Made by a program: the position numbers and the translations under genes | Shown: in pieces, positions 3,829 to 32,896 of the stretch | Position numbering within the stretch: position 1 is the stretch's first letter | How the letters are laid out: each line of letters starts with the position of its first letter | The notes under the pieces: generated by a model | What the model saw: the letters and a program-made list of their open reading frames with translations, nothing else | Database searches by the model: none | What the model was told of the DNA's origin: nothing | Source of the DNA: a bacterium | GTDB taxonomy: Bacteria > UBP18 > UBA7526 | NCBI GenBank assembly: GCA_030615855.1 | Contig: JAUWYL010000013.1 | Coordinates: 1 to 36,278 of the forward strand | DNA: 36,278 nucleotides | Reading direction: 5' to 3'

Positions 3829-5037
3829 ATGAAAAGAATCTCTTCCCATCTGGGACTCTTTCTAATAACCCTGGCCCTGATAAGCATAGGGATCATCATG
3901 GTCTATAGTGCCAGCGCCATCCTCTCCTTGGAGAGGTATAATGACCCCTATTTCTTTTTGAAGCGCCAGCTGGCTTGGGTCCTTTTGGGCCTTTCTGGGA
4001 TGCTTATCGCCGCAAGGATTAACTACCGTGCCCTACCCAAGCTATTAAAGCCTGCACTCTTCCTTACTCTTTGCTTACTCATCATGGTCCTCTTTCCCCA
4101 GTTTGGGAAGGAGATCGCTGGTGCCCGGAGGTGGCTCAAGATAGGAGACTTCACCCTTCAGCCTTCAGAGCTGGCCAAGCTCATCCTCATCCTCTATATG
4201 GCAGATACCCTCTCCAGAAAGAAAGAGAAGATAAAGAGCTTTGCTTATGGTTTCCTCCCCCCGCTTATCATCCTGGGGGCCATCTTTATCCTCATCCTCC
4301 TCCAGCCAGATTTAGGAACTGCCCTCATAATCCTGGTGGTTATTCTGGGGATGCTCTTTGTCTCTGGGGTGCGCTTGAAGTATCTCTTCTCCCTATTCCT
4401 CATTGCCCTCCCCAGCATCTGGCTCTTAATCAACAAGGTCGGTTATAGAAAGAGAAGGATCCTGGCCTTCCTCGATCCCTGGGGCGATCCTCGGGGCTAT
4501 GGCTTCCAGATCATCCAGTCCCTTCTCGCCTTAGGGTCGGGGGGGATCTTCGGTCGGGGTTTAGGAGAGGGAACCCAGAAGCTCTTCTACCTTCCTGCTC
4601 CCCATACCGACTTCATCTTCGCCATACTGGGTGAGGAGCTTGGGTTCTTGGGGGGGATAGCGGTCATCATTCTCTTTGGGGCATTCATCTATTCTGGGGC
4701 CAGGATCGCTCGCCGGGCCCCGGACCTCTTCGGTAGCCTCCTGGCCTTGGGGATAACCACCTGGATCGGACTACAGGCCATGATCAATATCGGGGTAGCC
4801 ACGGGAACCCTGCCCACCAAAGGGATACCCCTGCCCTTCATAAGCTTCGGTGGCTCCTCCCTGGTCTTCTCTTTAATCGGAGTGGGAATCCTCTTGAGCA
4901 TCTCCCTACGCAGCCATAGGTCGCCGACGCTCTCCATCCTCCGAAACAAAGCTTCTGCGGAGGACGGGCATGGCTTTGGTCACTTACGCTCCAGAGTTTC
5001 AGCGACGGGGCGCGACGGAGCGAGGCAGAAGAGATGA
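3829..5037 (+). CDS. ftsW: Peptidoglycan glycosyltransferase FtsW, with palindrome-derived C-terminal extension
   Basis: MVYSAS, GARRWL, QPSELAK, QPDLGTA, LPAPHTDFIF, KGIPLPFISFGGSS; position between murD and murG. Confidence 0.96.
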   Translation: MKRISSHLGLFLITLALISIGIIMVYSASAILSLERYNDPYFFLKRQLAWVLLGLSGMLIAARINYRALPKLLKPALFLTLCLLIMVLFPQFGKEIAGARRWLKIGDFTLQPSELAKLILILYMADTLSRKKEKIKSFAYGFLPPLIILGAIFILILLQPDLGTALIILVVILGMLFVSGVRLKYLFSLFLIALPSIWLLINKVGYRKRRILAFLDPWGDPRGYGFQIIQSLLALGSGGIFGRGLGEGTQKLFYLPAPHTDFIFAILGEELGFLGGIAVIILFGAFIYSGARIARRAPDLFGSLLALGITTWIGLQAMINIGVATGTLPTKGIPLPFISFGGSSLVFSLIGVGILLSISLRSHRSPTLSILRNKASAEDGHGFGHLRSRVSATGRDGARQKR

Positions 5038-6158
5038 GGATCCTAGTTACTGGGGGAGGGACAGGAGGCCACATCTATCCAGCACTGGCCATTGCCCATC
5101 GCCTTAGAAAAGAGAATTATCGGATCCTCTTTGTGGGAGCAGAAGAGGCCCTGGACAGGGATATCATTATCCGGGAAGGCTTTGAATTCAGAAGCATCTC
5201 GGTCCTACCTCTAGAGAGAAGGGTCTCCCTTCAATTACTTAAATTTCTAATTAAATTCATCATGGGATTCTTCCAATCCTTTCCCGTTCTATTTAATTTC
5301 AAGCCCCATCTAATAGTAGGTACTGGAGGATATTCCAGCGCCCCGGTTGCTCTGGCAGCCTATTTCTTGCGCATCCCTCTTCTGATCCATGAGCAGAACC
5401 TCTATCCTGGCCTGACCAATCGCTTCCTCTCTCGCTTCGCAAAAGAGATAAACATCACTTTTGCGGAGTCGAAGGAATATTTTAAGAAGAAAGAGGCAAG
5501 AGTAACGGGAAATCCCATACGAGAAAAGATCTTGAATCTGGATAGGGAAAGAGCACTCAAAGACCTTAAGCTTCGTTCCAAGAGGTTTAATCTCTTAATC
5601 TTTGGGGGGAGTCGGGGGGCGAGGGCCATCAACTATTGCCTTGCCCAAGTCCTAAAAAAAGGTCTCTTAGAAGGAAAGGGTCTCCAGATCATCCTCCTCA
5701 CCGGCTTTCTCGACTTTGAGTACCTCATTCAGGCTTCAAAGAGTAGTAAGATTCCTTTACTCATAAAGCCCTTTCTCCATAATATGGCCCAGGCCTACGG
5801 GGCGGCAGACCTGATCGTCTCTCGAGCCGGAGCAACCACCTTAGCCGAGCTCACTGCCTGCGGCCTGCCCGCCATTCTCATCCCCTATCCCCATGCCACC
5901 AGCAGGCATCAGGAGTATAATGCCCGTTTCCTTGCCAAAGAAGGAGCGGCTATGGTAATATTGGAGAAGGACCTCTCTCCAGAGAGGTTGGCAGATAGCA
6001 TCCTGCGGTTGATGAGAGATAAAGAGAGATTGGAAAGGATGAGGGAGAGAAGTAGGGGGTTGGGAAGGCCCTGGGCAACAGATCGGGTGATGGAGTCCAT
6101 CTATAAATTGACGATGGCTAAGCCATCACTTCGCGAGGAAAAATGTTTAAGAAAGTAG
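5034..6158 (+). CDS. murG: Undecaprenyl-PP-MurNAc-pentapeptide N-acetylglucosaminyl transferase
   Basis: GGGTGGHIYPA, HEQN, GNPIR, FGGSRGA, SRAGATT, HQEYNA. Confidence 0.97.
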   Translation: MRILVTGGGTGGHIYPALAIAHRLRKENYRILFVGAEEALDRDIIIREGFEFRSISVLPLERRVSLQLLKFLIKFIMGFFQSFPVLFNFKPHLIVGTGGYSSAPVALAAYFLRIPLLIHEQNLYPGLTNRFLSRFAKEINITFAESKEYFKKKEARVTGNPIREKILNLDRERALKDLKLRSKRFNLLIFGGSRGARAINYCLAQVLKKGLLEGKGLQIILLTGFLDFEYLIQASKSSKIPLLIKPFLHNMAQAYGAADLIVSRAGATTLAELTACGLPAILIPYPHATSRHQEYNARFLAKEGAAMVILEKDLSPERLADSILRLMRDKERLERMRERSRGLGRPWATDRVMESIYKLTMAKPSLREEKCLRK

Positions 6159-7525
6159 AGAGAATCCACTTCATCGGCATTGGGGGAGCAGGGATGAGCG
6201 GCATGGCAGAACTCTTATTCAATCTGGGCTATAAGGTTACTGGTTCAGATATCGCAGAGAGCCCGGTAACGAAGAGGCTTAAAGATTTGGGAATAAAGGT
6301 CTATCTCGGCCATAGAAGTTCCCAGATCGGCCCCTGTGATGTAGTAGTTACCTCTAGTGCCATCCCTCCCAGCAATCCAGAGGTAAGGGCTGCGGTAGCG
6401 GCTAAGATACCGGTCATCCCCAGGGCGGTGATGCTTGCCGAACTGATGAGGATGAAGGAGGGGATCGCCATCGCCGGTACCCACGGGAAGACGACCACCA
6501 CCGCCATGGTGGCCAGGGTACTGGCCAAGGGAGGCCTGGATCCCACCTTCGTCATTGGGGGAATATTGAATAGGACGAGAAGTTCGGCCAAGCTGGGCAA
6601 AGGGGATTTTCTGGTGGCCGAGGCGGATGAATCGGATGGCTCCTTTCTTCATCTCTCTCCAGCCATGGCAATCGTCACCTCTATCGACGAGGACCATCTG
6701 GACTACTATGGCACACTTTCCAGGCTAAAAGAGACCTTCCTGGAGTTCATCAATAAGGTCCCCTTCTATGGCCTGGCTATACTCTGTTCTGACGATCCCA
6801 ATATCCGGGATTTCCTTCCTCGGGTGAAAAAGAGGTATCTCACCTATGGTCTGAAGGGACCAGCGGAGCTCATAGCCCAGAGAATAAAGAGGACGAAAAG
6901 GGGATTGGTAGAATTTACTGTCATCTATCACCAGAAGAATTTGGGAAGGATAACCCTGGGCCTTCCCGGTATCCATAACGTTCAAAATAGCCTGGCAGCT
7001 ATTGGGGTGGGTCTGGAGCTGGGCATCGACTTTGCTAATATCCGGAAGGCACTGAAGGATCTCAAAGGAGTAGAGAGGAGATTAGAAATCAAGGGGGAGA
7101 AAGAATCCATCCTGGTCATCGATGACTATGCCCACCATCCTACAGAAATAAGGGCGGTACTCGCCACCATTAAGGGGAGGTATCCAGGGAGAAGGGTAGT
7201 AGGCGTCTTCCAGCCCCATCGCTATACTAGAACCAGGGGTCTACTAAAAAGTTTTGCCGCCTGTTTTAAAGGTCTGGATATCCTGATCCTCGCTAAGATC
7301 TATCCTGCGGGTGAGAAGCCCATCCCGGGAGTAAAGACGAAGAACCTACTTCCCCTCATGGCTAAAAGAAAGAGGCCAAGGGTGAGATATATTGCTTCTT
7401 TGGAGAAAATAGTTAAGTATCTTCTAAAAATATTAGAGCCCAATGATTTACTTCTTACTTTAGGAGCCGGGGATGTCTATTGGGTGGGAGAGGAACTCCT
7501 CAGGAAAATGAAAAATGCAAAATGA
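6143..7525 (+). CDS. murC: UDP-N-acetylmuramate--L-alanine ligase
   Basis: GIGGAGMSG, AGTHGKTTTT, EADESDGSF, DDYAHHPTEI, FQPHRYTR. Confidence 0.97.
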   Translation: MFKKVERIHFIGIGGAGMSGMAELLFNLGYKVTGSDIAESPVTKRLKDLGIKVYLGHRSSQIGPCDVVVTSSAIPPSNPEVRAAVAAKIPVIPRAVMLAELMRMKEGIAIAGTHGKTTTTAMVARVLAKGGLDPTFVIGGILNRTRSSAKLGKGDFLVAEADESDGSFLHLSPAMAIVTSIDEDHLDYYGTLSRLKETFLEFINKVPFYGLAILCSDDPNIRDFLPRVKKRYLTYGLKGPAELIAQRIKRTKRGLVEFTVIYHQKNLGRITLGLPGIHNVQNSLAAIGVGLELGIDFANIRKALKDLKGVERRLEIKGEKESILVIDDYAHHPTEIRAVLATIKGRYPGRRVVGVFQPHRYTRTRGLLKSFAACFKGLDILILAKIYPAGEKPIPGVKTKNLLPLMAKRKRPRVRYIASLEKIVKYLLKILEPNDLLLTLGAGDVYWVGEELLRKMKNAK

Positions 7526-7550
7526 AAAATGAAAAATGTAAAATCAAAAA
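7504..7550. repeat. AAAAATG-type heptamer array at the murC/murB junction
   Basis: gaaaatg aaaaatg caaaatg aaaaatg aaaaatg taaaatc. Confidence 0.9.
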
Positions 7551-8451
7551 TAAGATTAGAGACGAGATTCAGAGGATAGTGAAGGGGGAAGTAAAGTTCG
7601 CTGAGCCTATGAGCAGGCATACCTCTTTTAACATTGGTGGCCCGGCGGACTGCCTCATTGCCCCCCAAGATATAGAGGATATAAGAAAAATTATTCTTTT
7701 TAGCAGAAAGAGAAAGCTCCCCCTAAGAGTAATGGGCCAGGGAACGAACCTCCTGGTCCGGGATAAGGGGGTAAGAGAAATAGTCATAAAGTTAGGGAAA
7801 GGTTTTGAGGGCATCAAGTTTTCAGGAGATCATCTTCTGGCAGGAGCGGCGGTGAGACTCTCTACTTTAATAAAGCTGGCTGCCTCCAAAGGATTGGGGG
7901 GTTTGGAGTTTGCTGTCGGTATCCCGGGGAGTCTGGGTGGGGCCGTGGCAACCAATGCTGGGACAGGAAGCCTTTCCATCTCTCAGAGGCTCATGAGTAT
8001 CCGGGTGATGTCTGAGGAAGGGAGGGTAAAGGATCTGGGAGCGAAGGATTTAAACTTTGGCTACCGTAGGTGCCCCCTGGGGAAGGATAGCATAATCCTA
8101 GATGCCAGACTGAGACTGGAGAGAGCGAAAGAGGAGGAGATCCTGAAGAGAATGAACACTTTCTTAGAGAAGAGAGAGAAGACCCAGCCCCTGGGCGCGG
8201 CCAATGCTGGCTGTATCTTCAAGAACCCAGATCCTAAGACTCCAGCAGCGAGGCTCATTGAAGAGACGGGATTAAAGGGGAAGAGGATAGGAAGGGCCGT
8301 TGTCTCTAAGGTCCATGCCAACTTCATCCTCAACCTGGGAAGAGCAAGAGCAGAGGATGTGCTCACCCTCATGGAAGCAATAAAGGAGGAAGTGAAGGGA
8401 AAGACAGGAATAGATCTGGAGCCAGAGATTGAGATCTGGGGAGAAGACTAA
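7522..8451 (+). CDS. murB: UDP-N-acetylenolpyruvoylglucosamine reductase
   Basis: HTSFNIGGPA, GQGTNLL, GIPGSLGGA, AGCIFKNP (Cys variant of GSxFKNP), HANFILN; start chosen at the ATGA overlap with the murC stop. Confidence 0.95.
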   Translation: MKNEKCKIKNKIRDEIQRIVKGEVKFAEPMSRHTSFNIGGPADCLIAPQDIEDIRKIILFSRKRKLPLRVMGQGTNLLVRDKGVREIVIKLGKGFEGIKFSGDHLLAGAAVRLSTLIKLAASKGLGGLEFAVGIPGSLGGAVATNAGTGSLSISQRLMSIRVMSEEGRVKDLGAKDLNFGYRRCPLGKDSIILDARLRLERAKEEEILKRMNTFLEKREKTQPLGAANAGCIFKNPDPKTPAARLIEETGLKGKRIGRAVVSKVHANFILNLGRARAEDVLTLMEAIKEEVKGKTGIDLEPEIEIWGED

Positions 8452-8456
8452 TAAAA

Positions 8457-9425
8457 ATGCAAAATTTAAAATGCCTGCCTCGTCGGCAGACAGGCAAAAT
8501 GAAAAATGAAAAATTAAAGAGACTTAAGAAGAAAAAAATTGGGGTTTTGATGGGTGGGACCTCTGCTGAGAGGGAGATCTCCCTGAAGACCGGGAAGGCC
8601 ATTCTTCAGGCCCTAAAGAGAAAGGGCTTGAAGGCAATTCCCATAGATGTTGGCAAGGATATCGCTGAGAGACTTCTGGGGGAGAAGATCGAATTGGCCT
8701 TCGTTGCCCTCCACGGGAGGGGAGGGGAGGATGGAACGGTACAGGGCCTGTTAGAATTATTGAAAATCCCCTATACGGGAAGTGGGGTCCTGGCCAGCGC
8801 CCTGGCCCTGAATAAAGTTCAGGCCAAGAAGGTCTTTAAGTTTCACAGACTCCCTGTTCCAAGATTCCAAGTTTTGAAGAAGGGTCAAGGGTCAAGGGTC
8901 AAGGGTCAAGGTTTCTCTTTGCCCCTGGTCATTAAGCCCGCCCGAGAGGGCTCAACCATAGGTCTCTCCATCGTCCACAATAAGAGGGATATAGGGAAGG
9001 CCATGGAGAAGGCCTTCGGGTATGACGAGGAGATCATATTAGAGGAGTATATCGAGGGGAAGGAAGTAACGGTAGGGATAGTGGGGGATGAAGCCCTGCC
9101 GGTCATTGAGATCCGGCCAAAGGATGTCTTCTATACATATGAGGCGAAGTATATTAAGGGACTGACGGACTTCATCATACCGGCCCGCTTATCTAAGAGA
9201 GTCTATTCACAAGTGCAGAGGATTGCCCTTGCTGCTTATCACGCCTTGGGCTGTCGCCACTTCGCCCGGGTGGACATGATAGTGAATAAGAAGAATAAGC
9301 CCTATCTCTTAGAGGTCAATACCATACCAGGCATGACCGCTACCAGCCTCCTCCCCCAGGCAGCAGCGAAAAGGGGGATCGGTTTCGATGATCTAGTGCT
9401 GAAAATTCTGGAATTAGCACTATAA
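8457..9425 (+). CDS. ddl: D-alanine--D-alanine ligase (alternative start 8499)
   Basis: GGTSAEREISL, LHGRGGEDG, KPAREGS, YTYEAKY, EVNTIPGMT. Confidence 0.96.
   Translation: MQNLKCLPRRQTGKMKNEKLKRLKKKKIGVLMGGTSAEREISLKTGKAILQALKRKGLKAIPIDVGKDIAERLLGEKIELAFVALHGRGGEDGTVQGLLELLKIPYTGSGVLASALALNKVQAKKVFKFHRLPVPRFQVLKKGQGSRVKGQGFSLPLVIKPAREGSTIGLSIVHNKRDIGKAMEKAFGYDEEIILEEYIEGKEVTVGIVGDEALPVIEIRPKDVFYTYEAKYIKGLTDFIIPARLSKRVYSQVQRIALAAYHALGCRHFARVDMIVNKKNKPYLLEVNTIPGMTATSLLPQAAAKRGIGFDDLVLKILELAL
8880..8907 (+). repeat. Perfect heptamer tandem repeat (AAGGGTC)x4 inside ddl
   Basis: aagggtc x4, translated as KGQGSRVKG. Confidence 0.95.
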
Positions 9426-9490
9426 AAAGTAGGAGAGGAAGTAAGAAAGTAAGTAATACAAAGTGCAAAATTAGCAATATAAAATGTAAA

Positions 9491-10303
9491 ATGAGAAAGT
9501 ATCGCATTAAAAACCTTAGGATCGCTCCCCGACCTAAACATCTTAAGGGGAAAAGAAAAAGGATAAAGAGTCTCTTTAAGAATACCTTTAGGTTACTTCT
9601 CATCTTAGCCATCGTCTCCTCTCTGGGATTTATGGGGAAGTGGTTCCATGAATTTATTCATACCTCTTCGAGTTTTAATATAGAGGAGATCGATATCCAG
9701 GGATTGAATCGACTGAAGGAGAAAGAGATCCTCAATCTTTTATCTTTAGAGCTTCCCCAGAATATATTCTACATGGATCTGAAAGAAGCAAGAGAGAGGA
9801 TCGAGACCCACCCCCGCATCAAAGAGGCCATCATCCATCGTCGTCCCCCAGGGAGGGTCATCATCCGGGTCAGGGAGAGGGAACCCATGGCCCTCATTAA
9901 TCGGGAAGGGGAGTTCTTGGGGATAGATTCCTCATGCGTTCCCTTTCCCCTGGTGGAGCCCCTAAAGGGAGTTGATCTACCCCTCATCACGGGAATAGAA
10001 TCCGGCGAGATAATCATTGGTGAAGAGTCAAAATCTCCCAATCTCAGGACGGCCCTGGATATCCTGAAGACCATTCTCTCTTTGAAGGGGCACTTATTCA
10101 GCCAGATCTCAGAGATAAATGTGCTAAATGGGATAATCCTCTATACCATAGGGGCCACCCGGGTTCGAATGGGAAAAGAGGACTTCCGGGATCAACTTCT
10201 CAATCTCCAGGGGGTGCTCATTCACCTGAATCAGGAGAAGAGGAGGGCGGAATATATCGATCTAAGATTCAAGAATAAAGTCATTGTCAAAGAACACGAA
10301 TAG
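9491..10303 (+). CDS. ftsQ: Cell division protein FtsQ/DivIB
   Basis: Basic N-terminus, one TM helix, POTRA-like segment, C-terminal YIDLRF; between ddl and ftsA. Confidence 0.9.
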   Translation: MRKYRIKNLRIAPRPKHLKGKRKRIKSLFKNTFRLLLILAIVSSLGFMGKWFHEFIHTSSSFNIEEIDIQGLNRLKEKEILNLLSLELPQNIFYMDLKEARERIETHPRIKEAIIHRRPPGRVIIRVREREPMALINREGEFLGIDSSCVPFPLVEPLKGVDLPLITGIESGEIIIGEESKSPNLRTALDILKTILSLKGHLFSQISEINVLNGIILYTIGATRVRMGKEDFRDQLLNLQGVLIHLNQEKRRAEYIDLRFKNKVIVKEHE

Positions 10304-10398
10304 ACACGAACTGACACGAGAAAAGATAGGAAATGACACACGAAATAACACGAAGAAATTCGTGTGAATTCGTAATAAATTCGCGTGGATTCGTGTAA
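10293..10398. repeat. Inverted ~10-mer arrays (ACACGAA-core / TTCGTG-core)
   Basis: aacacgaatagacacgaactgacacgag...acacgaaataacacgaa vs ttcgtgtgaattcgtaataaattcgcgtggattcgtgt. Confidence 0.85.
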
Positions 10399-10415
10399 TA
10401 TGATAGCGAGGAGAA

Positions 10416-11651: not shown

Positions 11652-11660
11652 GAGGAAGAA

Positions 11661-12752: not shown

Positions 12753-12779
12753 AGATTTCTGAAAAAGTCAGAAATCTTT

Positions 12780-13054: not shown

Positions 13055-13082
13055 AAAAGGCCCGAGATTCTCGGGCCTTTTT
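13055..13082. terminator. Second, potentially bidirectional intrinsic terminator
   Basis: aaaaggcccgaga-t-tctcgggccttttt. Confidence 0.7.
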
Positions 13083-19323: not shown

Positions 19324-20730
19324 TTGATTAACCGATTAGTTAAAAAACATAGGAAACTTATTTTTTTCATTGTCATTCTTTTCATCCTCTTTTTGATTCC
19401 TACCTCTAGATTAAAGCCCATTGATGGAGTAACTGGCTTGCCTTTGGAAGGATATAAGATAAAGATTCCTGCGACCGCCTATATCCTTGAGCCCTTTGTA
19501 GGAGTCTCCCAGTACTTCTGGCGCTTCACAGACTTCAGATTCCAGACCCTTTCCTGGCTGGTCTGGATAATCGTTCTATATCTTTTTTTCAACTTAAAAA
19601 GGAAAATTAATATTTCTGAAAGGTTAAAGGGGCTATTTAAAGTCCTCATATCCTTTGTTTTAGTCTGTTTTTTTATTACCTTGGTGCCTCTACCAAAGTA
19701 TAGTCTGCAACCAGAGAATCCTAAAGAAATTTTGATCGATCTCCATAGTCACACCACTTGTTCCCATGAGGGGATCGCTTCCCCAGAAGAGAATATCAGA
19801 TGGCACCTGGCTCATGGTTTCGATGCTTGGGCGATTACTGATCATCCTCGAACATTAGAAGGAGCAAGGAGAGCAAAAGAGATAGCTAAAGAAAAGTATC
19901 CTCAAGCAGTGATCATTACTGGGCAGGAAATAAAGTGCTATACGGGAAAACAAGGAGAAAACTTTCTCCTTTTAGGAATTGATGAGGTTATAGATGAACG
20001 GAAATACGGTAGAGAGATCGCTAAGATTGCTAACTTAATTCATGAAAAATACAAAGGAGCGGTTATCGTCCCCCATTGGTGGAGGAAGAAATTCCATAAC
20101 TTAAAAAACTTGGCTGAGGCTGGAGTGGATGGGTTTGAGATCTATACTGCACGCGCCCTGGGGCCTGAAAGATCTATTCGAGAAGCAATCAAAGATGTCT
20201 GCCAGGGAAATAATCTCATCATGCTTGGGTCAAGCAACTGGCATGGCTGGGGAAGTGCCTCTCACATCTGGACCTCAACCCATATAGCGGATTGGCCCAA
20301 GCTGAATAAGGATGAGAGGGAAGAAGCGATACTCAAGGCTCTACGCGATAGAAAAGCAGATCAATTTAGGGTGATTCTCTATAATAGGGTTGAGCCTCAG
20401 AATAGAATGAGGTATCTCTTCGAGCCTTTCATTGGTTCATTCTACTATTTCTCCAGTTTAAATGGTTCCCAGTTCTTATCCTGGATTATTTGGTCAATCA
20501 TATTCTATTCCCTTTTGTGTCTCATTAGGGAAAGACCTATATTTTTAGATTTAACGGTAATTGGAATAGCCCTCTTCCTCTTCTCCAAAGGGATTACATT
20601 CTTGAATCTTTGGGTTCGTTACCTGGCGTATAATGAAATCCTCCTCATTTTAGGAAACATCCTCTTGTGTTTTGGAGCCTTCCTCCTTATTATAGCCATC
20701 CTTCCCCTTGTCCATAGGAAATTAAGATGA
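19324..20730 (+). CDS. Membrane protein with central PHP-family metallohydrolase domain
   Basis: DLHSH, AITDH, PHWW, DGFEIY, GSSNWHG motifs flanked by about 3 N-terminal and 3 C-terminal hydrophobic helices; TTG start uncertain. Confidence 0.75.
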   Translation: MINRLVKKHRKLIFFIVILFILFLIPTSRLKPIDGVTGLPLEGYKIKIPATAYILEPFVGVSQYFWRFTDFRFQTLSWLVWIIVLYLFFNLKRKINISERLKGLFKVLISFVLVCFFITLVPLPKYSLQPENPKEILIDLHSHTTCSHEGIASPEENIRWHLAHGFDAWAITDHPRTLEGARRAKEIAKEKYPQAVIITGQEIKCYTGKQGENFLLLGIDEVIDERKYGREIAKIANLIHEKYKGAVIVPHWWRKKFHNLKNLAEAGVDGFEIYTARALGPERSIREAIKDVCQGNNLIMLGSSNWHGWGSASHIWTSTHIADWPKLNKDEREEAILKALRDRKADQFRVILYNRVEPQNRMRYLFEPFIGSFYYFSSLNGSQFLSWIIWSIIFYSLLCLIRERPIFLDLTVIGIALFLFSKGITFLNLWVRYLAYNEILLILGNILLCFGAFLLIIAILPLVHRKLR

Positions 20731-21569
20731 GGTTTGGGGCTCACATCTCCATTGCGGGTAAGATATATCAGGTGGCAGAGAGGGCCAAAAGGATAGGCTG
20801 CAATACTGCCCAGATCTTCTCTCGAAACCCAAGGGGATGGCAACTCAAAGAACTCCTTTCCGATGAAGCAAAGAGACTGAAGGATGATTTAGAAAGATTT
20901 GACATCCATCCCCTCATCGTTCATATGCCCTATCTTCCCAACCTGGCCTCTCCTAAAATTGGATTATATCTTAAATCAGTCAATGCCTTAGAAGAAGACT
21001 TAAGAAGATCCGAGGTCTTGGGAGCGCCTTATCTCGTTACTCATATCGGAAGCTTTTCCGACCTTTCCAGCCGGAAAGAGGGATTAGAGAGGGTAATTGA
21101 GGGAATAAATACCGCTTTTAACAGGGTCAGAAACGATGTCATACTCTTACTGGAGAATACCGCAGGGGGAGGGAGAGAGTTGGGCAGCAGTTTCGAAGAG
21201 ATTGCAAAAATTATCAAAGATGTTAAAGAGAAGGAAAGGATCGGGATCTGTTTCGATACCTGCCATGGTTTTGCCAGTGGGTATGATTTTAGAACGAAGA
21301 AGGCAGTCTCTAAAACCTTGAGATTGTTTGACGATGTAATTGGTTTGAAGAAATTCAAGGTCATCCATGCCAACGACTCCAAAAGTCCTTTAGGTTCCCA
21401 TATCGATCGCCACTGGCACATTGGGAAGGGATATATTGGAGAGGAAGGGTTCCGGGCATTATTGCATCATCCAGCGATAATAAATCTACCAATCATTATT
21501 GAAACTCCTTTTAAAGAACCAGGGGATGATTTAAAGAACTTGGCCACTCTGCGAAGATTGGCCAGATAA
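20727..21569 (+). CDS. nfo: Endonuclease IV (AP endonuclease)
   Basis: GAHISIAG, HMPYLPNLAS, ENTAG, DTCH, HANDSK, DRHWHIG, IIETP. Confidence 0.95.
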   Translation: MRFGAHISIAGKIYQVAERAKRIGCNTAQIFSRNPRGWQLKELLSDEAKRLKDDLERFDIHPLIVHMPYLPNLASPKIGLYLKSVNALEEDLRRSEVLGAPYLVTHIGSFSDLSSRKEGLERVIEGINTAFNRVRNDVILLLENTAGGGRELGSSFEEIAKIIKDVKEKERIGICFDTCHGFASGYDFRTKKAVSKTLRLFDDVIGLKKFKVIHANDSKSPLGSHIDRHWHIGKGYIGEEGFRALLHHPAIINLPIIIETPFKEPGDDLKNLATLRRLAR

Positions 21570-21602: not shown

Positions 21603-21819
21603 ATAATAAAGTAACAAGGGATCTCAGTTTTGCGTCTTTAAGTTAAATTTTGCGTCTTTGCAGTTATAATGTCCGCAATGATTTCCGTCCGACCGCCTCT
21701 GGCGGACGGACAGGCGCGCTTGTAATTTATCCGTGACCATCCCTGTCTGCCGACAGGCAGGCGTGTTTTTAAACTAACGCAATAAGCGGTAAAAAGAAAT
21801 CCGTGTATAGGAGGGAGAG

Positions 21820-22173
21820 ATGGCAAAGAAGAAGATAGAAGGGATTCTGGAGAGGACGAAGAAGAGCCTCATTAAGGATTTGGAAGAGGCGAGGAAGAGG
21901 CTGGCGGAATTTAGGAAGAGGACCACCGCCCTGGCTAAGAAGGCGAAAGAAGGGGCGGAAAAGACAGCCAGGATTAGCAGGTTGAGACTGGAGATCGTTT
22001 CCTTGGTTCAGAGAAAGGATAGGAAACTAAAGGAGCTGGGGAAGAAGGCCTATCACCTGATTAAGAGCGGAAAGATCTCTGGAAAGGGTCTGAAATCCTT
22101 GAGTGAAGAGATAAGGAATCTGGAGACGAAGATCCGAAAGAAGGAGAAAGAGATCAAACAATTAAGAAAATAA
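21820..22173 (+). CDS. Hypothetical basic coiled-coil protein
   Basis: 117 aa, K/R/E-rich and helical-looking; GGAGGG SD upstream; no recognised family. Confidence 0.7.
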   Translation: MAKKKIEGILERTKKSLIKDLEEARKRLAEFRKRTTALAKKAKEGAEKTARISRLRLEIVSLVQRKDRKLKELGKKAYHLIKSGKISGKGLKSLSEEIRNLETKIRKKEKEIKQLRK

Positions 22174-23959: not shown

Positions 23960-23972
23960 ATCCTTTATTCTC

Positions 23973-24001: not shown

Positions 24002-24011
24002 GAAATACTTG

Positions 24012-24034
24012 CCCCGTTAAAAATCTTAACGGGG
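24012..24034. mobile_element. Minimal 23-bp member of the CCCCGTTA family
   Basis: ccccgttaa-aaatc-ttaacgggg flanked by a perfect CTTG direct repeat (24008-24011, 24035-24038). Confidence 0.7.
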
Positions 24035-24035
24035 C

Positions 24036-24064
24036 TTGACAAATAGAAAAGTTTGTTTTATCAT
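24036..24064 (+). promoter_or_regulatory. sigma70-type promoter for the DUF1284-like gene pair
   Basis: TTGACA-17 bp-TATCAT. Confidence 0.7.
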
Positions 24065-24097
24065 AATAGTTAACCAAAATTTAAAAGAGGTTAACAG

Positions 24098-25317: not shown

Positions 25318-25318
25318 C

Positions 25319-25347
25319 TTGAAATCAAAAATAATTTATGGTAGGAT
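25319..25347 (+). promoter_or_regulatory. Putative sigma70-type promoter for bioY
   Basis: TTGAAA-17 bp-TAGGAT with TG extension. Confidence 0.5.
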
Positions 25348-25366
25348 GTAATAGGAGGTACAAGAG

Positions 25367-25972: not shown

Positions 25973-26176
25973 ACCATTTCTCTTACGCTCCAGTCAAACT
26001 CTTTGAGTCACTAAATAAAAAGAATCAAGATATCCCTAGAAATTTTGAGTTCCTAAGGTTTTGCCACAAATCTTGTCCGATCGGACACCATTTGTGGCAT
26101 TTTTATTTTGAGATATCAGAACTTCAATAAGCAAAAGACGGCGGAGAGCGAAGCGCGCCGTCATTTTGCCAAAAAT

Positions 26177-26205
26177 TTGCAAAAGGGTCTTATCTATGCT
26201 ATACT
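26177..26205 (+). promoter_or_regulatory. sigma70-type promoter for leuS
   Basis: TTGCAA-17 bp-TATACT with TG extension, 21 nt before the ATG. Confidence 0.65.
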
Positions 26206-26226
26206 AACTAAATTAATGGAGGCAGA

Positions 26227-28749
26227 ATGGGAAGATACTATCCTTTCCAGAAGATTGAGAAAAAATGGCAGGATTACTGGAGGAAGAGGAACCAGTTTAA
26301 GGTCAAGGAAGACCCCAAGAAGAAAAAGTACTATCTTCTTGAGATGTTTCCTTATCCATCTGGAAAGCTCCATATGGGCCATATGAGAAATTACGTGGTA
26401 GGGGATACCCTGGCTCGCTTCTTGAGGATGAAAGGATATAACACATTATACCCTATGGGCTATGACTCCTTCGGCCTTCCGGCAGAGAATGCTGCTCTTC
26501 AGAATAGAACCCATCCTGCAGAGTGGACGAAGAGATGCATCTCTGATATGAGGAAGCAGCAGGAGAAGATGGGATTATCCTATGACTGGAATAGGCTGAT
26601 CATCACCTGTCAGCCAGACTATTATAAATGGAATCAGTGGATCTTCTTGAAGTTCTATGAGAGGGGATTGGCCTATAAGAGGAAGGCGCCCATCAACTGG
26701 TGCCCCTCTTGTAAAACAGTCTTAGCCAATGAACAGGTTGAGGAGGGGAAGTGCTGGAGATGCGAATCAAGGGTTGAGATAAGAGACTTAGAGCAGTGGT
26801 TCTTCAAGATTACAGAATATGCTCAGGAATTATTAGAAGATTTAGAGAGGTTGGAGGGATGGCCGGAGAGGGTGAAACTGATGCAGGAGAACTGGATCGG
26901 AAGATCAACTGGAACTCTGGTCAACTTCAGACTCAAGGATAGCGATAAGATCCTCCCCATCTTTACTACCAGGCCAGATACTCTCTATGGAGTGACCTTC
27001 ATGACCATGGCCTGTGAACATCCCTTGGTTTTAGAATTGGTTGAGGGTACCAAATATGAGAAAGAAGTTAGGGAATTTATAAATAGAGTAATCTTGGAGG
27101 ATAGATTTACCAGAACGGCAGAGGATAAGGAGAAGGAAGGGGTCTTCATTGGTAGGTGCGCCATCAATCCCCTAACCAATGAAGAGATTCCCGTCTATGT
27201 GGCCAACTTCGTTCTCTTAGAGTATGGTACCGGGATTATCATGGCCGTTCCTGCCCATGATCAAAGAGACTTCGAGTTCGCCCAGAAATATAACATCCCC
27301 ATAAAGCAAGTCATTCAGAAGTCAGATATCAGATATCAGATATCTGAATTGACTGAGGCTTATATTGACCCTGGAATCATGGTAGATTCTGCTCAATTCA
27401 CTGGTCTGAAATCAGAAGAGGCCAAGGGGAAGATTACTACCTATCTAAAAGAGAAGGGGTGGGGGAAGAGGGCGGTTCAGTATAAGTTGCGCGATTGGCT
27501 CATATCCCGCCAGAGATACTGGGGAACACCCATTCCTATCATCTACTGCAAGAAGTGTGGAGTAGTTCCTGTTCCGAGAGAGGAACTACCGGTAGAATTA
27601 CCGCAGGATGTTAAATTTACCGGAAAAGGTAACCCCCTAAAGAAATGTCAAGAATTTGTAAATTGCAGATGTCCTAAGTGTAAGGGGAAGGCCAGAAGGG
27701 AGACGGATACCATGGATACCTTCGTTGACTCCTCCTGGTACTTCTCTAGATATTGTAGCCCGGATTATGATAAGGAACCATTTGATAAAAAGAGGATAGA
27801 TTACTGGATGCCCGTTGATCAGTATATTGGGGGAATAGAGCACGCCATTATGCATCTTTTATATGCCCGATTCTTTACCAAGGCCTTGAGAGACATAAAA
27901 TTATATAAGATCGATGAGCCCTTCAAGAGACTATTCTGTCAGGGGATGGTGGTAAAGGATGGGGCCAAGATGTCCAAGTCAAAGGGGAATGTGGTCTCTG
28001 TTGACGAGATAACGAATAAATACGGTGCAGATACTGCCCGGCTATTCATTCTCTTTGCCTCTCCTCCAGAAAAGGACCTGGAATGGAGTGTGGAAGGAGT
28101 AGAAGGGTCATTTAGGTTTTTGAATAGGGTATGGAGATTAATTAATGATTTTAATTTCCAATTTCCCCCGGCCTCGCCAAGCGAAGCGGGGCGGGCAATT
28201 TCTAATTTACAAGGTAAACCCGAAACCCGAAACCCGAAACCCGAAACTGAGTTAAAAAAGATTACTCATAAAACGATTAAGAAGGTGACTGAGGATATTG
28301 AAAAGAGGTTCCATTTCAATACCGCCATCTCTGCCATTATGGAGCTGGTCAATGCTATACAAAACTCAAAACTCAAAACTCAAAACTCAAAACTCCGAAC
28401 TCCGAACTCCGAACTCCGAAAAGCTATTGAGACCGTAGTGCTATTACTATCTCCCTTTGCTCCCCATATCTGTGAAGAGATCTGGGAGAACCTGGGTAAT
28501 AAACCGAGTATCGGCCAAAAGGATTGGCCAACCTATGATCCAAAAGCAATTATAGAAGAGGAGATTCTAATCGTCATTCAAGTAGATGGAAAACTCCGAA
28601 GCAGAATAAAGGTCCCTATAAATTCAAGCGATGACGAAGTAAAAGAGAAGGCCTTAGCGGATGACAGAATAAAGAAATTTATTTCGGAAAAAAAGATCAA
28701 AAGAGTCATTTTAGTGCCCAAGAAACTGGTGAATATCGTCACCAGATAG
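26227..28749 (+). CDS. leuS: Leucine--tRNA ligase, with several repeat-derived insertions
   Basis: MFPYPSGKLHMGH, FTTRPDT, DWLISRQRYWG, GGIEHA, KMSKS. Confidence 0.98.
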   Translation: MGRYYPFQKIEKKWQDYWRKRNQFKVKEDPKKKKYYLLEMFPYPSGKLHMGHMRNYVVGDTLARFLRMKGYNTLYPMGYDSFGLPAENAALQNRTHPAEWTKRCISDMRKQQEKMGLSYDWNRLIITCQPDYYKWNQWIFLKFYERGLAYKRKAPINWCPSCKTVLANEQVEEGKCWRCESRVEIRDLEQWFFKITEYAQELLEDLERLEGWPERVKLMQENWIGRSTGTLVNFRLKDSDKILPIFTTRPDTLYGVTFMTMACEHPLVLELVEGTKYEKEVREFINRVILEDRFTRTAEDKEKEGVFIGRCAINPLTNEEIPVYVANFVLLEYGTGIIMAVPAHDQRDFEFAQKYNIPIKQVIQKSDIRYQISELTEAYIDPGIMVDSAQFTGLKSEEAKGKITTYLKEKGWGKRAVQYKLRDWLISRQRYWGTPIPIIYCKKCGVVPVPREELPVELPQDVKFTGKGNPLKKCQEFVNCRCPKCKGKARRETDTMDTFVDSSWYFSRYCSPDYDKEPFDKKRIDYWMPVDQYIGGIEHAIMHLLYARFFTKALRDIKLYKIDEPFKRLFCQGMVVKDGAKMSKSKGNVVSVDEITNKYGADTARLFILFASPPEKDLEWSVEGVEGSFRFLNRVWRLINDFNFQFPPASPSEAGRAISNLQGKPETRNPKPETELKKITHKTIKKVTEDIEKRFHFNTAISAIMELVNAIQNSKLKTQNSKLRTPNSELRKAIETVVLLLSPFAPHICEEIWENLGNKPSIGQKDWPTYDPKAIIEEEILIVIQVDGKLRSRIKVPINSSDDEVKEKALADDRIKKFISEKKIKRVILVPKKLVNIVTR
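28361..28416 (+). repeat. Heptamer array (AAAACTC)x5 + (CGAACTC)x3 inside leuS
   Basis: Perfect units; translated QNSKLKTQNSKLRTPNSELR. Further leuS arrays: (AAACCCG)x4 at 28216-28243 and TCAGATA-type at 27315-27349. Confidence 0.95.
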
Positions 28750-28825
28750 TAAGTAACAAGTAGCAATTGTTCAATATTAATTGTTCAATGTTCATTGTAA
28801 ATTGTAAGCTATCAGGGGGAATAAA

Positions 28826-29386
28826 ATGAAGATAAGACGAATCATTCTATTGGTAGCGCTTATGATTGGAATAGTGGCGGCTGGTTGCGCCTATAAGGCA
28901 GAATATAGACTGCCTCCCCATATCAAGAAGATCGCCATTCCCATATTTGGAAACGATACCTATGAGTATGGGGCAGAGAATAGTCTGACCGATGCTGTCA
29001 TTGAGAGCTTTCTTACCGATGGGAGGTTGAAGATTGTAAGTCTAAGGGATGCTGACGCTGTGCTTCAGGGGACAATAAGCGGCTATGGTAAGGATATTTT
29101 ATCCTATGACGATTACGATGTGGCCGAGGAGTACCGGGTATATATTGAGGCCAATATTGCCCTGAAGGATCTGACAACCGGTGAAATCTTGTGGGAAGAG
29201 AAGGAGATGAGGGAGACGAGCACCTACTGGGATACGGATACTGCCCTCCAGCCAAAAGAGACAGAGGCAGAAGGAAAGGCCAGAGCCATCGACAACTTGG
29301 CAAAGGATATCGTTAATCGGGTAATCAGAGGATTCCCCACTGCAAAGTGGAAGAGGGGAATAATTCCGGTAGAAGAGGAGAAGTAA
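28826..29386 (+). CDS. LptE-family lipoprotein
   Basis: Lipobox VAAG-C; IAIPIFGNDT, ADAVLQGTI; follows leuS as in the common leuS-lptE-holA order. Confidence 0.75.
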   Translation: MKIRRIILLVALMIGIVAAGCAYKAEYRLPPHIKKIAIPIFGNDTYEYGAENSLTDAVIESFLTDGRLKIVSLRDADAVLQGTISGYGKDILSYDDYDVAEEYRVYIEANIALKDLTTGEILWEEKEMRETSTYWDTDTALQPKETEAEGKARAIDNLAKDIVNRVIRGFPTAKWKRGIIPVEEEK

Positions 29387-29393
29387 GACACCT

Positions 29394-31256
29394 ATGGAAG
29401 AGAAATTAAAGAAAGGACTGGGACTTCTCGATGTCTTCTGCATCGCTTCCGGTGCCATGATCAGTTCTGGATTATTCATTCTGCCTGCTTTAGCATATGC
29501 TAAGACCGGACCGGCTATGGTCTTCTCTTATATCTTAGCTGGCCTTCTCATCTTACCAGCCATGCTTGCCAAGGCGGAACTGGCCACTGCTATGCCCAAA
29601 GCAGGAGGAACCTATTTTTTTATTGAAAGAAGTATGGGGGCCGCTGCCGGTACCATAGGTGGGCTCACCAGCTGGTTCTCCCTGAGTTTTAAAAGCGCCT
29701 TTGCTCTGGTGGGGATGGGTATATTTGCAACGCTGGTTAACCCCAATATTACCGAGATGCAGATAAAACTTATTGCCGTAGGATGCTGTCTCTTCTTTAT
29801 GTTCGTAAATATCATCGGGGTCAAACATACCGGGAGGTTTCAGATAGCACTGGTTCTCTCTCTCATTGGCATCCTTGTCTTATATGTCCTTCGTGGTTCT
29901 TTCTCTCTTCAACACTCCAGATATATTCCCTTTATGCCTTTTGGTCCGGGTTCTGTCTTTGCTACCGCCGGTCTTGTTTTTATCTCTTTCGGGGGACTAA
30001 CAAAGATATGCTGTGTGGCAGAAGAGGTAAAGAACCCGGGACGAAATATACCACTGGGAATGTTTCTTGCTTTTAGCATAGTAATGGTTCTCTATGCTTT
30101 AGTTACTTTGGTAACCGTAGGCTTGCTCGATCCCCAAAATCTTTCCAGTTCTCTTACCCCCATCTCGCTTGGCGCCAGCACTTTCATGGGAACCGCGGGA
30201 GGTGTGGTATTGGCCATTGCTGCCTTCTTGGCCTTCATCTCCACGGCCAATGCTGGAATTTTAGCCGCCTCTCGCTCACCTATGTCTATGAGCCGGGATC
30301 AACTTCTGCCCGGGTTCTTCAAGAAGATCGGCTCCAAATTTAAAACTCCTTATTCCTCTATAATCTTCACCACTCTCTTTATGATTATCGTTATCTTATT
30401 CTTAAGTCTGGAGAATTTGGTCAAGACCGCCTCTACTTTAATGATTCTATTGTTCGCCTTTGTAAACCTGTCTGTGATCGTTATGCGGGAAAGTAAGATA
30501 CAGACCTATCGCCCAAAATTCCGCTCTCCCCTCTATCCCTGGATTCAGATCTTAGCCATTGGTAGTTATGGATTTCTCATTTTTAAAATGGGAAGGCTTC
30601 CCCTCGAAATAACTGGAATTTTTATCGCTTGTGCCCTGGCCTGGTATCTGGTCTATGCCCGGGCTAAGGTAAGCCGCCGGTCGGCCCTGATGCATATTGT
30701 GGAGCGCATCACTGCCAAAGAATTAAAAGGTACCACCTTACGAGATGAATTAAGGGAGATTATAATTGAGCGAGACAAGATCGTTGAAGATAGATTTGAT
30801 CGCCTGATAAGAAACTCCAAAATTTTAGATATAGACCGCTCTATATCATTAGAAGAGATGTTTACAATGTTATCCGCTACCTTCTCCCAGCGCGTAGGGA
30901 TAGATGAAAAGACCCTCTTTGACCTCTTTGTGGAGAGGGAGAAGCAGACCAGCACCGTGATCGCCCCCGGGCTGGCCATACCGCATGTCATTGTCAAAGG
31001 AGTCCAAGAGTTTGACATTCTTTTAGTCCGTTGTAAAGAAGGGATTATCTTCCCTGATGTTCCTCAACCAGTACATACCATGTTTGTTCTGGTCGCTTCT
31101 CCTGACGAACGCAATTTCTACCTCCGCGCTTTAGCGGCCATTGCCCAGATTGCCCAGGATAAAGACTTTGATAAGAATTGGTTAAAGGCCCGCAACATTG
31201 AGGAGTTGAGAGATATCATTCTCTTGGCAGAGAGGAAACGCATCGGCATAATTTAA
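29394..31256 (+). CDS. APC-family amino acid permease fused to a C-terminal PTS EIIA (Fru/Ntr-type) domain
   Basis: GAMISSGLF, ELATAMPKAGG, AEEVKNPGRNIP, about 12 TM helices; C-terminal EREKQTST...GLAIPH. Confidence 0.88.
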   Translation: MEEKLKKGLGLLDVFCIASGAMISSGLFILPALAYAKTGPAMVFSYILAGLLILPAMLAKAELATAMPKAGGTYFFIERSMGAAAGTIGGLTSWFSLSFKSAFALVGMGIFATLVNPNITEMQIKLIAVGCCLFFMFVNIIGVKHTGRFQIALVLSLIGILVLYVLRGSFSLQHSRYIPFMPFGPGSVFATAGLVFISFGGLTKICCVAEEVKNPGRNIPLGMFLAFSIVMVLYALVTLVTVGLLDPQNLSSSLTPISLGASTFMGTAGGVVLAIAAFLAFISTANAGILAASRSPMSMSRDQLLPGFFKKIGSKFKTPYSSIIFTTLFMIIVILFLSLENLVKTASTLMILLFAFVNLSVIVMRESKIQTYRPKFRSPLYPWIQILAIGSYGFLIFKMGRLPLEITGIFIACALAWYLVYARAKVSRRSALMHIVERITAKELKGTTLRDELREIIIERDKIVEDRFDRLIRNSKILDIDRSISLEEMFTMLSATFSQRVGIDEKTLFDLFVEREKQTSTVIAPGLAIPHVIVKGVQEFDILLVRCKEGIIFPDVPQPVHTMFVLVASPDERNFYLRALAAIAQIAQDKDFDKNWLKARNIEELRDIILLAERKRIGII

Positions 31257-31277
31257 AGCATCGGAACTTCAATGGAA

Positions 31278-31350
31278 CCACGGATTAAATGGATTGGACA
31301 GATTTTTAAAGAGACTACTAATCTGTGTAAATCTGTGAAATCTGTGGTTA
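31278..31350. repeat. Inverted 9-mer-type arrays (CACGGATT-type / AATCTGTG x3)
   Basis: ccacggattaaatggattggacagatt vs aatctgtgtaaatctgtgaaatctgtgg. Confidence 0.8.
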
Positions 31351-31372
31351 CTATTTTGGAATGGAGAGATAA

Positions 31373-32896
31373 ATGTATCATCCTTCATTGAAAGAGTTTA
31401 TTAGGAAGGCTAAAGAGGGGAATCTGATCTCGGTTTACAGAGAAGTGTCAGCGGATTTAGAGACTCCAATATCCATCTTCAGCAAGATTGAGACCGGAAA
31501 ATATGCCTTTCTTTTAGAAAGCGTAGAAAGAGGAAAGAAAATCAGTCGTTACTCCCTGCTGGGTTCTGACCCTTCTCTCATCTTCAAGATTAAGGGTAAG
31601 AGGATAGAGATTATTAGAAGAAATAGAAAAGAAGACTATGAAACACCTAATCCTTTAGAGGCCTTGAAGAAGTTATTGCTCAGTTACAAAACGGTGAAGG
31701 ATGAGAACCTACCGGGGTTCGTTGGGGGTGCGGTGGGCTACCTCGGTTATGACATCGTGCGCCTCTTTGAAGAATTACCGGATGAAAATCCTGACGATCT
31801 CAATCTACCCGATGCCCTATTCTTCTTTGTTTCCACATTTCTTCTCTTTGACCATCTAAAGCATAGAATCAAGGTAGTATCCTGTGCCCCAATTAAGGGG
31901 AATCCTAAAAGAGCATATCAAGAAGCGATTAGAAAGATTGAAAATTTAATAAATCAGCTGGAGAAACCAACCCCCCATCACCGATCATCCATCCTCCGTA
32001 GCAGTTGCACTGCTACTGCGGAGGATGGACCGGTCACTGCGGGCACCCCGACAGAGGTCGGGGTCGGATCACCGATTACTATAAAGTCCAATCTCAGTAA
32101 GGAAGAATTCAAGAGAATAGTAGAGAGGATCAAAGAATACATTAAGGCAAAAGAGGTGCGACAGGTCATCATCTCCCAGAGGTTAGAGACCAGGATCAAC
32201 GTTCCTCCTTTTAATATTTATAGAGCGCTGCGCACCATCAATCCCTCCCCTTATATGTTCTATCTGAAGTGTGAAGATCTGAGATTGATCGGCGCCTCTC
32301 CTGAAAACTTGGTGAAGTTTGAAGGCAGAAAAGTGATAACCAGGCCGGTAGCCTCAACCAGACCGAGGGGGAAGGATGCCCGGGAAGATGGGAGAATGGC
32401 TCAAGAACTCTTTCATAGCTCCAAAGAGAGATCGGAGCATCTGATGCTCGCTCGTTTATGCCAGAAGGAACTGGAAGAGATATGCCAGAGGAATAGTATA
32501 AAGATGGAGAGGGAGATGGAGATTGAAAGATATTCCCATGTGATGCATCTGGTCTCCACCATATCGGGAAGACTTAAAAAGAATAAGGATGCCTTTGACC
32601 TTATCTATACCTGTTTTCCTTCAGCCACTATTACTGGTGTTCCAAAGAAAAGGGCCATGGAGATTATTGAAGAGGTAGAATCAATAAAGAGGGGTCCTTA
32701 TACCGGGGCTATAGGGGTCTTAAGTTTCTCTGGCGATCTGGACCTGGGCATCATAGTTAGAAGTATCATCATTAAGGGAAAACGGGCCTATATCCCGGTG
32801 GGATGTGGGATTGTAGCGGCCTCTATTCCGGAGAGGGAATATCAGGAGACCAGAGATAAGGCCCAGGCCCAGATTGAGGCCATAAATGCTGCTTAG
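31373..32896 (+). CDS. Anthranilate synthase component I-like (chorismate-binding) protein, divergent
   Basis: DLETP, FLLESVE, GGAVGYLGYD, NPSPYM, YSHVMHLVS, EYQETRDKA; several canonical motifs altered. Confidence 0.85.
   Translation: MYHPSLKEFIRKAKEGNLISVYREVSADLETPISIFSKIETGKYAFLLESVERGKKISRYSLLGSDPSLIFKIKGKRIEIIRRNRKEDYETPNPLEALKKLLLSYKTVKDENLPGFVGGAVGYLGYDIVRLFEELPDENPDDLNLPDALFFFVSTFLLFDHLKHRIKVVSCAPIKGNPKRAYQEAIRKIENLINQLEKPTPHHRSSILRSSCTATAEDGPVTAGTPTEVGVGSPITIKSNLSKEEFKRIVERIKEYIKAKEVRQVIISQRLETRINVPPFNIYRALRTINPSPYMFYLKCEDLRLIGASPENLVKFEGRKVITRPVASTRPRGKDAREDGRMAQELFHSSKERSEHLMLARLCQKELEEICQRNSIKMEREMEIERYSHVMHLVSTISGRLKKNKDAFDLIYTCFPSATITGVPKKRAMEIIEEVESIKRGPYTGAIGVLSFSGDLDLGIIVRSIIIKGKRAYIPVGCGIVAASIPEREYQETRDKAQAQIEAINAA

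Follow-up and report, generated by a model that had tools for sequence, protein, structure and literature searches.

Palindromic repeats that lie within genes are one of the few known routes to new peptide segments in conserved bacterial proteins. The Rickettsia palindromic elements (RPEs) are confined to Rickettsia, and RPE-1, which Ogata and colleagues are said to have described, is about 100–150 nt long. In PMC3733652, repetitive extragenic palindromes (REPs) of only 20–40 bp are reported inside genes, as stretches encoding short peptides that are located in protein loops and tails; the Rickettsia elements RPE-4 and RPE-6 are among them, as are many copies in Opitutus terrae. PMC6006769 describes in-frame REPs inside tnpA-REP genes, and 'double-foot' REPs of the GTAG...CTAC form. 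Here, we report on two hairpins in a 36 278 nt stretch of DNA (the window), which is contig JAUWYL010000013.1 of assembly GCA_030615855.1, from a bacterium of the UBP18 lineage. One hairpin is in ftsW and the other in trpE, and both are translated into a SILR...AEDG peptide. We conclude that, at both sites, a small palindromic repeat of a non-autonomous, REP-like kind has very probably been inserted recently. Membership of a wider family, absence of the segments from orthologues, precise junctions and a mainly intergenic location of the family are directly supported.

A sequence-only reading of the window had noted that the two sites share arms, orientation and frame over 36 and 42 nt and yield in-frame peptides, all of which is confirmed by position and translation. 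Its comparison with RPEs stands as far as in-frame palindromic insertion is concerned. The comparison is incomplete, as it left out the short intragenic REPs (20–40 bp, RPE-4 and RPE-6 included) described in PMC3733652.

Hairpin insertions in trpE and ftsW

The trpE gene (31373–32896, + strand, 507 aa; PF04715 and PF00425) encodes anthranilate synthase component I, and its product matches the sequences of TrpE structures in the PDB at an E value of 4e-89. The hairpin in it (copy 2; 31988–32029, + strand, 42 nt) is of an extended subtype, in which perfect 11 bp outer arms, TCCATCCTCCG at 31988–31998 and its exact complement at 32019–32029, enclose a 6–7 bp inner stem and a CTG bulge. Copy 2 encodes SILRSSCTATAEDG, residues 206–219 of TrpE, and its fold is strong as single-stranded DNA (-18.2 kcal/mol, z -7.1). 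Comparison with the closest orthologue (P0003, 493 aa, listed at 86% identity) revealed that exactly the 14 hairpin-encoded residues are absent there and that the flanks are identical, the junction reading ...TPHHRS|PVTAGTPTEVGVGSPI... in P0003. These 14 residues are absent from all 21 orthologues in a 22-row alignment. The 507 aa of this TrpE compare with 485–496 aa in 13 of its 14 closest listed relatives (79–86% identity) and 521 aa in the remaining one.

The site is in a length-variable loop of TrpE. Mapping of the insert onto structure, which the sequence-only reading had suggested, went only part of the way: residues 204–241 are unaligned against solved TrpE structures, and an AlphaFold model made with the 22-row alignment (mean predicted local distance difference test score, pLDDT, of 58) is too poor to place the insert, its coil at residues 198–234 with pLDDT below 50 being a weak indication. 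The hairpin splits one unit of an ATCACCG-type tandem array with a 7 nt period, and a remnant of the array adjoins copy 2 upstream (31976–31987, + strand; units read by eye, with no call from Tandem Repeats Finder). The downstream part of the loop (32030–32080, + strand) contains a 13-aa segment, PVTAGTPTEVGVG, that only P0003 has as well; a small 7 bp hairpin (32046–32063) is part of this segment, and further array remnants (32067–32080) come after it. TrpE relatives have 7-residue periodic peptides of the HRSPIT type at the same loop. The loop as a whole (about 31970–32085) is hypervariable among close relatives and contains other, unrelated inserts too; the TrpE of P0007 has a larger insert of roughly 28 residues.

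The second host gene, ftsW (3829–5037, + strand, 402 aa), was recognized from the ORF list and its translation and belongs to the FtsW/RodA/SpoVE family via its orthologues, which have precomputed PF01098 matches and the source names FtsW or lipid II flippase. The hairpin in ftsW (copy 1; 4933–4968, + strand, 36 nt) is of the AAG...CTT subtype; two inner positions show G-to-A differences, and the copy encodes SILRNKASAEDG, residues 369–380 of FtsW. The left arm is again TCCATCCTCCG (4933–4943), and both hairpins are in the reading frame of a long + strand ORF. The partner arm at 4958–4968, CGGAGGACGGG, is imperfect. Because of an A.C mismatch in the stem, which pairs over 7 bp plus 2 bp, and a degraded inner part, the predicted DNA fold of copy 1 is weak (-6.8 kcal/mol, z -2.2). 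The term palindrome, applied to both sites at the outset, is exact for the arms of copy 2 and approximate for copy 1.

FtsW is 402 aa here and 364–377 aa in 14 orthologues listed at 81–96% identity. These 14 are without a tail segment of 25–38 residues that contains the hairpin, and in them the last residues (ARQKR-like) are kept. Relative to P0122 (368 aa, listed at 96% identity), the extra segment is 34 aa. The proposal that both copies are insertions is borne out by these orthologues and those of TrpE; the proposed size of the ftsW insert, 36 nt, is not. The inserted DNA is a composite of about 102 nt around the hairpin (34 aa, RSPTL...GRDG, in the C-terminal tail; approximately 4918–5019, + strand, with boundaries drawn from protein alignment). 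On either side of the hairpin, stretches of about 15 nt (upstream) and about 20 nt (downstream) are shared with a composite that occurs twice in another metagenome-assembled genome (MAG; loci L040 and L046). The ftsW stop codon overlaps the start of murG (5034; Pfam match on 5034–6158), so an insertion there had to preserve the frame.

A second occurrence of an 11-mer in 36 kb is unremarkable taken alone, and all listed loci of the family described below are metagenome- or single-cell-derived, which would suit a chance resemblance or an assembly or sequencing artefact. The controls speak strongly against chance. When up to one mismatch was allowed, the 11-mer was found five times in the window, compared with a mean of 1.17 in 100 shuffled sequences, none of which reached five, and TCCTCCG-N(3–30)-CGGAGGA was found twice, compared with 0.00 in 100 shuffles. 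A covariance model, R1, was built from 47 copies in other genomes and none from the window. It matched copy 1 at 4930–4971 (57.9 bits, E 2.3e-17) and copy 2 at 31985–32032 (50.9 bits, E 5.3e-15); the next best match in the window scored 13 bits (E 0.034), and nothing else was convincing. The copies also preserve the reading frame, differ from one another in inner loops and flanks, and are present on contigs of 0.4–2.6 Mb from different projects (L011, L018 and L116). We consider coincidence or artefact extremely improbable, and the two sites belong to one repeat family, as had been supposed. The 13-bit match (21681–21713) is a GC-rich (0.67) stretch between ORFs 20727–21569 and 21820–22173 that is probably unrelated.

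A hairpin family in uncultured bacteria

When CCATCCTCCG-N(5–35)-CGGAGGAYGG was used as a pattern to scan 185 579 species-representative genomes, at least 122 loci were returned, with about 70 chance matches expected in the whole collection (a rough estimate that assumes uniform base composition). The inner part is not in the search pattern. It is shared by 73 of the 122 listed loci, as TAGCAG, 1–3 nt and CTACTG or as variants of this (AAGCAG..CTTCTG, a flipped CAGTAG..CTGCTA, or longer inner stems), and the other 49 have unrelated inner sequences. R1 matched at the seed position in all 82 loci on which it was run (the 73 and nine that are similar by eye), 47 of these matches being by construction.

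The unit consists of two conserved arms of 10–11 nt, CCATCCTCCG and CGGAGGAYGG, around a small inner hairpin of the TAGC..GCTA type and a CTG bulge, and has a core of 33–41 nt with a 10 bp outer stem that includes one mismatch. This A.C mismatch is retained in 69 of 76 rows. Of the 76 rows, 71 have a T just before the left arm; the right arm is followed by GC, with G in 60 rows and C in 63. The inner pair at columns 15:26 changes from T-A to A-T in 6 of 47 rows and is unpaired in one; its covariation score is 0.044, compared with 0.011 in shuffles, and none of 500 shuffles reached it. GTAG is present in 41 of the 47 aligned rows (those with T in column 15), between the outer and inner stems, where it pairs with CTAC. 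The extended subtype of copy 2 was also found in L019, L065, L005, L043 and L044, under the labels Omnitrophota, Pirellulales, Doudnabacteria and Gracilibacteria. L040 and L046, in one MAG, are alike for more than 25 nt on both sides and have different inner hairpins; on this comparison the inner hairpin acts as a swappable module. A second type of small hairpin (TCCCGA..TCGGGA-like) was seen in L080 (about 1495–1570), L046, L003 and L027, either as the inner module between conserved arms or alone nearby, and the 7 bp hairpin beside copy 2 loosely resembles it.

By hand tally, the labels of the 73 listed family loci are Desulfobacterota-type (40), Verrucomicrobiota (6), candidate phyla radiation (CPR; 5, namely Saccharibacteria, Doudnabacteria, Gracilibacteria and Liptonbacteria), Nitrospirota, Planctomycetota and Omnitrophota (4 each), Cloacimonadota (2), Elusimicrobia (1), Gammaproteobacteria (1), a Nitrosospira-labelled record (1) and unclassified (5), or about nine labels at phylum level. 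All 73 are MAG, single-amplified genome (SAG) or uncultured records, several of them on contigs of 0.4–2.6 Mb. Cultured isolates account for none of the 73 and for 4 of the 49 unrelated matches (Acutalibacter, Streptomyces, Micromonospora and Schumannella). Their lack among the listed family loci could reflect lineage bias or the extent of the scan.

No relevant family was found in Rfam 15, where 10 loci searched at E values up to 1 gave chance-level miRNA matches far below gathering scores; in the window, only two tRNAs were found at gathering scores. In the literature, the element sequence was not found described, a primer-like string match in one unrelated paper aside, this search having left uncompared the consensus figure of PMC3733652, which is an image. 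As that figure (Figure 1) gives the REP consensus sequences, identity with a published REP family is conceivable.

The hairpin might instead be mainly a functional nucleic-acid structure, such as an mRNA stabilizer, a processing site or a Shine-Dalgarno/anti-Shine-Dalgarno-like GGAGG/CCUCC stem, that is kept by selection and spread horizontally, with mobility secondary. Conservation over about nine phylum labels and the compensatory T-A to A-T change in the inner stem would fit such a role, as would the many copies between co-oriented or convergent genes; the strand that can form G.U pairs is in the mRNA sense at 8 of 11 loci between co-oriented, Pfam-supported genes (a hand tally, not significant). 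Against it, the hairpin has no match in Rfam and stands at no visibly constant distance from a start codon, and the contexts are unrelated to one another and include trpE, ftsW and thrC, whose close orthologues manage without a copy. There is also no T-run after the hairpin, which is thus not an intrinsic terminator, and the terminator was set aside for that reason. We regard a mainly structural function as improbable and favour the mobile, REP-like repeat. From reading the sequences, a CRISPR repeat was likewise set aside (almost all loci hold a single site), as were an integron attC (no R sites seen) and a fragment of 16S helix 45 (likeness at the hexamer level only).

Coding copies and landing sites

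At 68 of the 73 listed family loci there is no long ORF through the hairpin, and the neighbours are ordinary housekeeping genes, often co-oriented or convergent. The remaining five (L020, L022, L034, L076 and L116) are candidate coding loci. The copy in L020 is inside a ThrC gene (PALP domain) and encodes SILRSRASAEDG, the same peptide in the same frame as the window copies; SILRSRASAEDG is absent from P0243 (ThrC, 90% identity) and from 25 other orthologues aligned of 120 listed. The copy in L022 is in the tail of a multihaem cytochrome ORF, and those in L034, L076 and L116 are in long ORFs without a Pfam match. Outside L020, the coding copies use different frames and also the other strand (PSS..LLRRTG, IHPPKQ.., PVLRSS..). 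The family is thus not confined to a pair in the window, and the TrpE and FtsW orthologues do not contain the same segments. Nor is it a dedicated coding-insertion element, as had been proposed, given the 68 loci without a long ORF and the variety of frames and strands.

All six frames are open in copy 1, and four of six in copy 2. As copies are open in most frames, use of one shared frame is roughly a one-in-five event, and the peptide is a by-product. In genes, the survivors would be those copies that leave the frame intact, contain no stop and are located in loops or tails that tolerate them; the SILR...AEDG peptide common to TrpE, FtsW and ThrC would therefore be a passive read-out of the same DNA surviving in the same frame. 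Like that of TrpE, the ThrC loop of L020 (about 1440–1560) is a surface loop that is hypervariable among close relatives and holds other, unrelated inserts; the ThrC relatives are 349–393 aa long. Peptides that look as if encoded by heptamer repeats were seen in these loops, HRSPITDHRS in both TrpE and ThrC relatives, and KSKVQSPKSKV.

Several insertion sites are in 7 nt tandem arrays. In L020 the hairpin splits an AGTCCAA array whose phase resumes after the insert, and in trpE, too, the array phase runs on past the insert. A nested dimer, in which one copy is inside the left arm of another, has the same 7 nt array on both sides in L022 and L081. No target duplication is visible at the trpE, L020 and L022/L081 junctions, where the ambiguity is at most 1 nt. 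Nested copies are present in L007, L022, L032, L042, L081 and L083 (around 1470–1550, or 290–370 in short loci), the dimer being the same in loci with Verrucomicrobiota, Desulfobacterales and unclassified labels. When a 77 nt nested dimer was used to query plasmid and phage collections with blastn, no match was returned, in a search limited by the low-complexity filter and by the bias of the collections to cultured hosts. In 6 of 71 listed loci, the flanks form a stem of 8 bp or more with the hairpin at its tip, compared with 0.7% in mismatched-flank controls; location at palindrome tips is a real effect that concerns a minority of loci. Period-7 arrays are found within 80 nt in seven flanks among the 73 listed family loci and in none among the other 49, which is no more than suggestive of a link between family and arrays. 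In one contig, L024 and L025 (about 165–197 and 1808–1840) have the same orientation and identical 25 nt flanks and are 1.6 kb apart, with a DUF6932 gene between them.

The window contains six exact period-7 arrays of at least three units, where 50 first-order Markov simulations gave 0.0; of the other periods from 4 to 10, only 5 and 8 are represented, by one array each. Given this strong excess, and inserts that are inside slippage-prone 7 nt arrays, each hairpin could have arisen locally by template switching or slippage during replication instead of by copying of an element. Such events cannot yield the same sequence of more than 30 nt in trpE, ftsW, thrC and the 73 listed loci of other genomes, and we give a local origin very little credence.

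Relation to described repeats and a possible mobilizing enzyme

Like RPEs, the element is inserted in frame into unrelated, often essential proteins, and the added segment is absent from orthologues. The sequences are unrelated and, in contrast to RPEs, most copies are intergenic. There is no Rickettsia record among the 122 listed loci, and the RPE peptides in the PMC3733652 supplement differ from those found here.

Cyanobacterial small dispersed repeats (SDRs) were reportedly described by Elhai et al. in 2008 as mobile units of 21–27 nt, some of them hairpin-forming and nested. Their genomes are rich in tandem heptanucleotide repeats (short tandemly repeated repetitive sequences, STRRs). According to a passage citing that work, SDRs are said not to be found outside Nostocaceae. 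The likeness is in the tiny size, the hairpins, the nesting and the heptamer-rich genomes; the sequences and the lineage are different. Miniature inverted-repeat transposable elements (MITEs), such as Correia/NEMIS and ERIC, are short, non-autonomous and insertion sequence-derived, with inverted ends, target-site duplications and sometimes in-frame read-through. The element resembles them as a short, non-autonomous repeat with inverted ends, but has no duplication at three junctions (trpE, L020 and L022/L081) and is a much shorter unit.

The closest likeness is to REPs and their dimers (REP doublets forming hairpins, REPINs), which are associated with REP-associated tyrosine transposases (RAYT, or TnpA-REP). 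The shared features are an imperfect, GC-rich palindrome of 30–40 nt, mainly intergenic dispersal, dimers or grouped forms, occasional in-frame copies in gene loops and tails, a conserved stem mismatch and no visible target duplication. The inner stem has GTAG on one side and CTAC on the other, which resembles the 'double-foot' REPs of PMC6006769. In canonical REPs a GT[AG]G tetranucleotide is at the 5' foot of the whole hairpin, whereas here GTAG is inside the outer stem, and REPIN dimers are side by side where those found here are nested. The peptides listed in the PMC3733652 supplement for intragenic REPs do not include SILR...AEDG. Unlike REPs that flank a cognate RAYT gene (a REPtron), the element was seen with no RAYT gene beside the 73 listed loci or in the window, and one sequence is found under about nine phylum labels. 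The short intragenic kind of REP is thus already known; the points of difference here are the internal GTAG, the nested dimers, the swappable inner modules, the link to 7 nt arrays, the cross-phylum spread and the lack of a RAYT nearby.

The family is dispersed, for the most part in intergenic DNA, among uncultured bacteria from many phyla. New copies are placed precisely, without visible target-site duplication, often into 7 nt tandem arrays, other copies of the element or the tips of longer palindromes, and we propose that they would be made in trans by an enzyme recognizing the imperfect hairpin in single-stranded DNA. Precise joins without duplication, the stem mismatch, the internal GTAG/CTAC and structure-prone sites would fit RAYT or IS200-type Y1 transposases. 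By analogy with these, the copying enzyme may be, for example, a Y1/HUH transposase of the RAYT or IS200 kind, a suggestion that we make tentatively and with more doubt than confidence.

Several points weigh against the interpretation as a mobile, REP-like repeat. No transposase or RAYT (Y1_Tnp) domain was found among the 265 ORFs (at least 110 aa) that lie within about 1.5 kb or 0.3 kb of the copies at the 73 listed loci, nor among 27 ORFs scanned in the window; a Y1/HUH enzyme is thus unsupported by neighbouring genes, although it may be encoded by a single distant gene per genome. Copies are few in the DNA covered, with two in the 36 kb window, only three additional ones found by R1 in 162 kb of flanks and at least four loci in the richest genome listed. 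Every listed family locus comes from a MAG, SAG or uncultured record. GTAG has an internal position, where canonical REPs have it at the foot. Most REP families are not nearly identical across phyla as this one is, and such sameness could instead mean that the hairpin has a selected function or has spread horizontally. The invariance of nine of the ten outer pairs is partly by construction, as the arms are fixed by the search pattern. The length test that the sequence-only reading had suggested counts in favour of the interpretation: the core length is 1 mod 3, or 36 or 42 nt with the two boundary bases added, for 6 of 7 coding copies and 26 of 68 other listed loci (one-sided Fisher p 0.021). 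The test is partly circular, as a frame-breaking copy would not score as coding.

A wider reading is possible, and we put it forward as a conjecture that is more likely to fail than to hold: one near-invariant hairpin would have reached uncultured bacteria of nine or more phyla, CPR included, placed precisely and in trans without duplication into 7 nt arrays, hairpin tips and its own copies, and together with the arrays it would build fast-evolving, hypervariable loops and tails in the essential enzymes TrpE, ThrC, FtsW and possibly LeuRS. If true, it would be a widespread, undescribed generator of protein-length variation, in place of an ordinary REP of one lineage. Should the cross-phylum spread hold, the family would be a marker of horizontal exchange among uncultured lineages, and a warning for gene callers and for alignment-based phylogenies of MAG housekeeping genes. 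The window provides clean, dated examples of insertion, with orthologues listed at 86–96% identity that are without the insert. A landing-site rule of 7 nt arrays without duplication, which is possible, could point to the enzyme.

Period-7 repeats in the window are at 8880–8911, 27322–27344, 28216–28247, 28360–28420 and 34063–34085, and also at 809–839, 3647–3806 and 7505–7551. A perfect 13 bp inverted repeat with a 1 nt gap is downstream of ftsZ (13055–13081), and a palindrome with 19 nt arms and no spacer is upstream of leuS (26062–26099). Five of the six exact period-7 arrays are inside genes (ddl and leuS), and those in leuS encode 7-residue periodic peptides of LeuRS (KPETRNP KPETE; QNSKLKT QNSKLRT PNSELRK).

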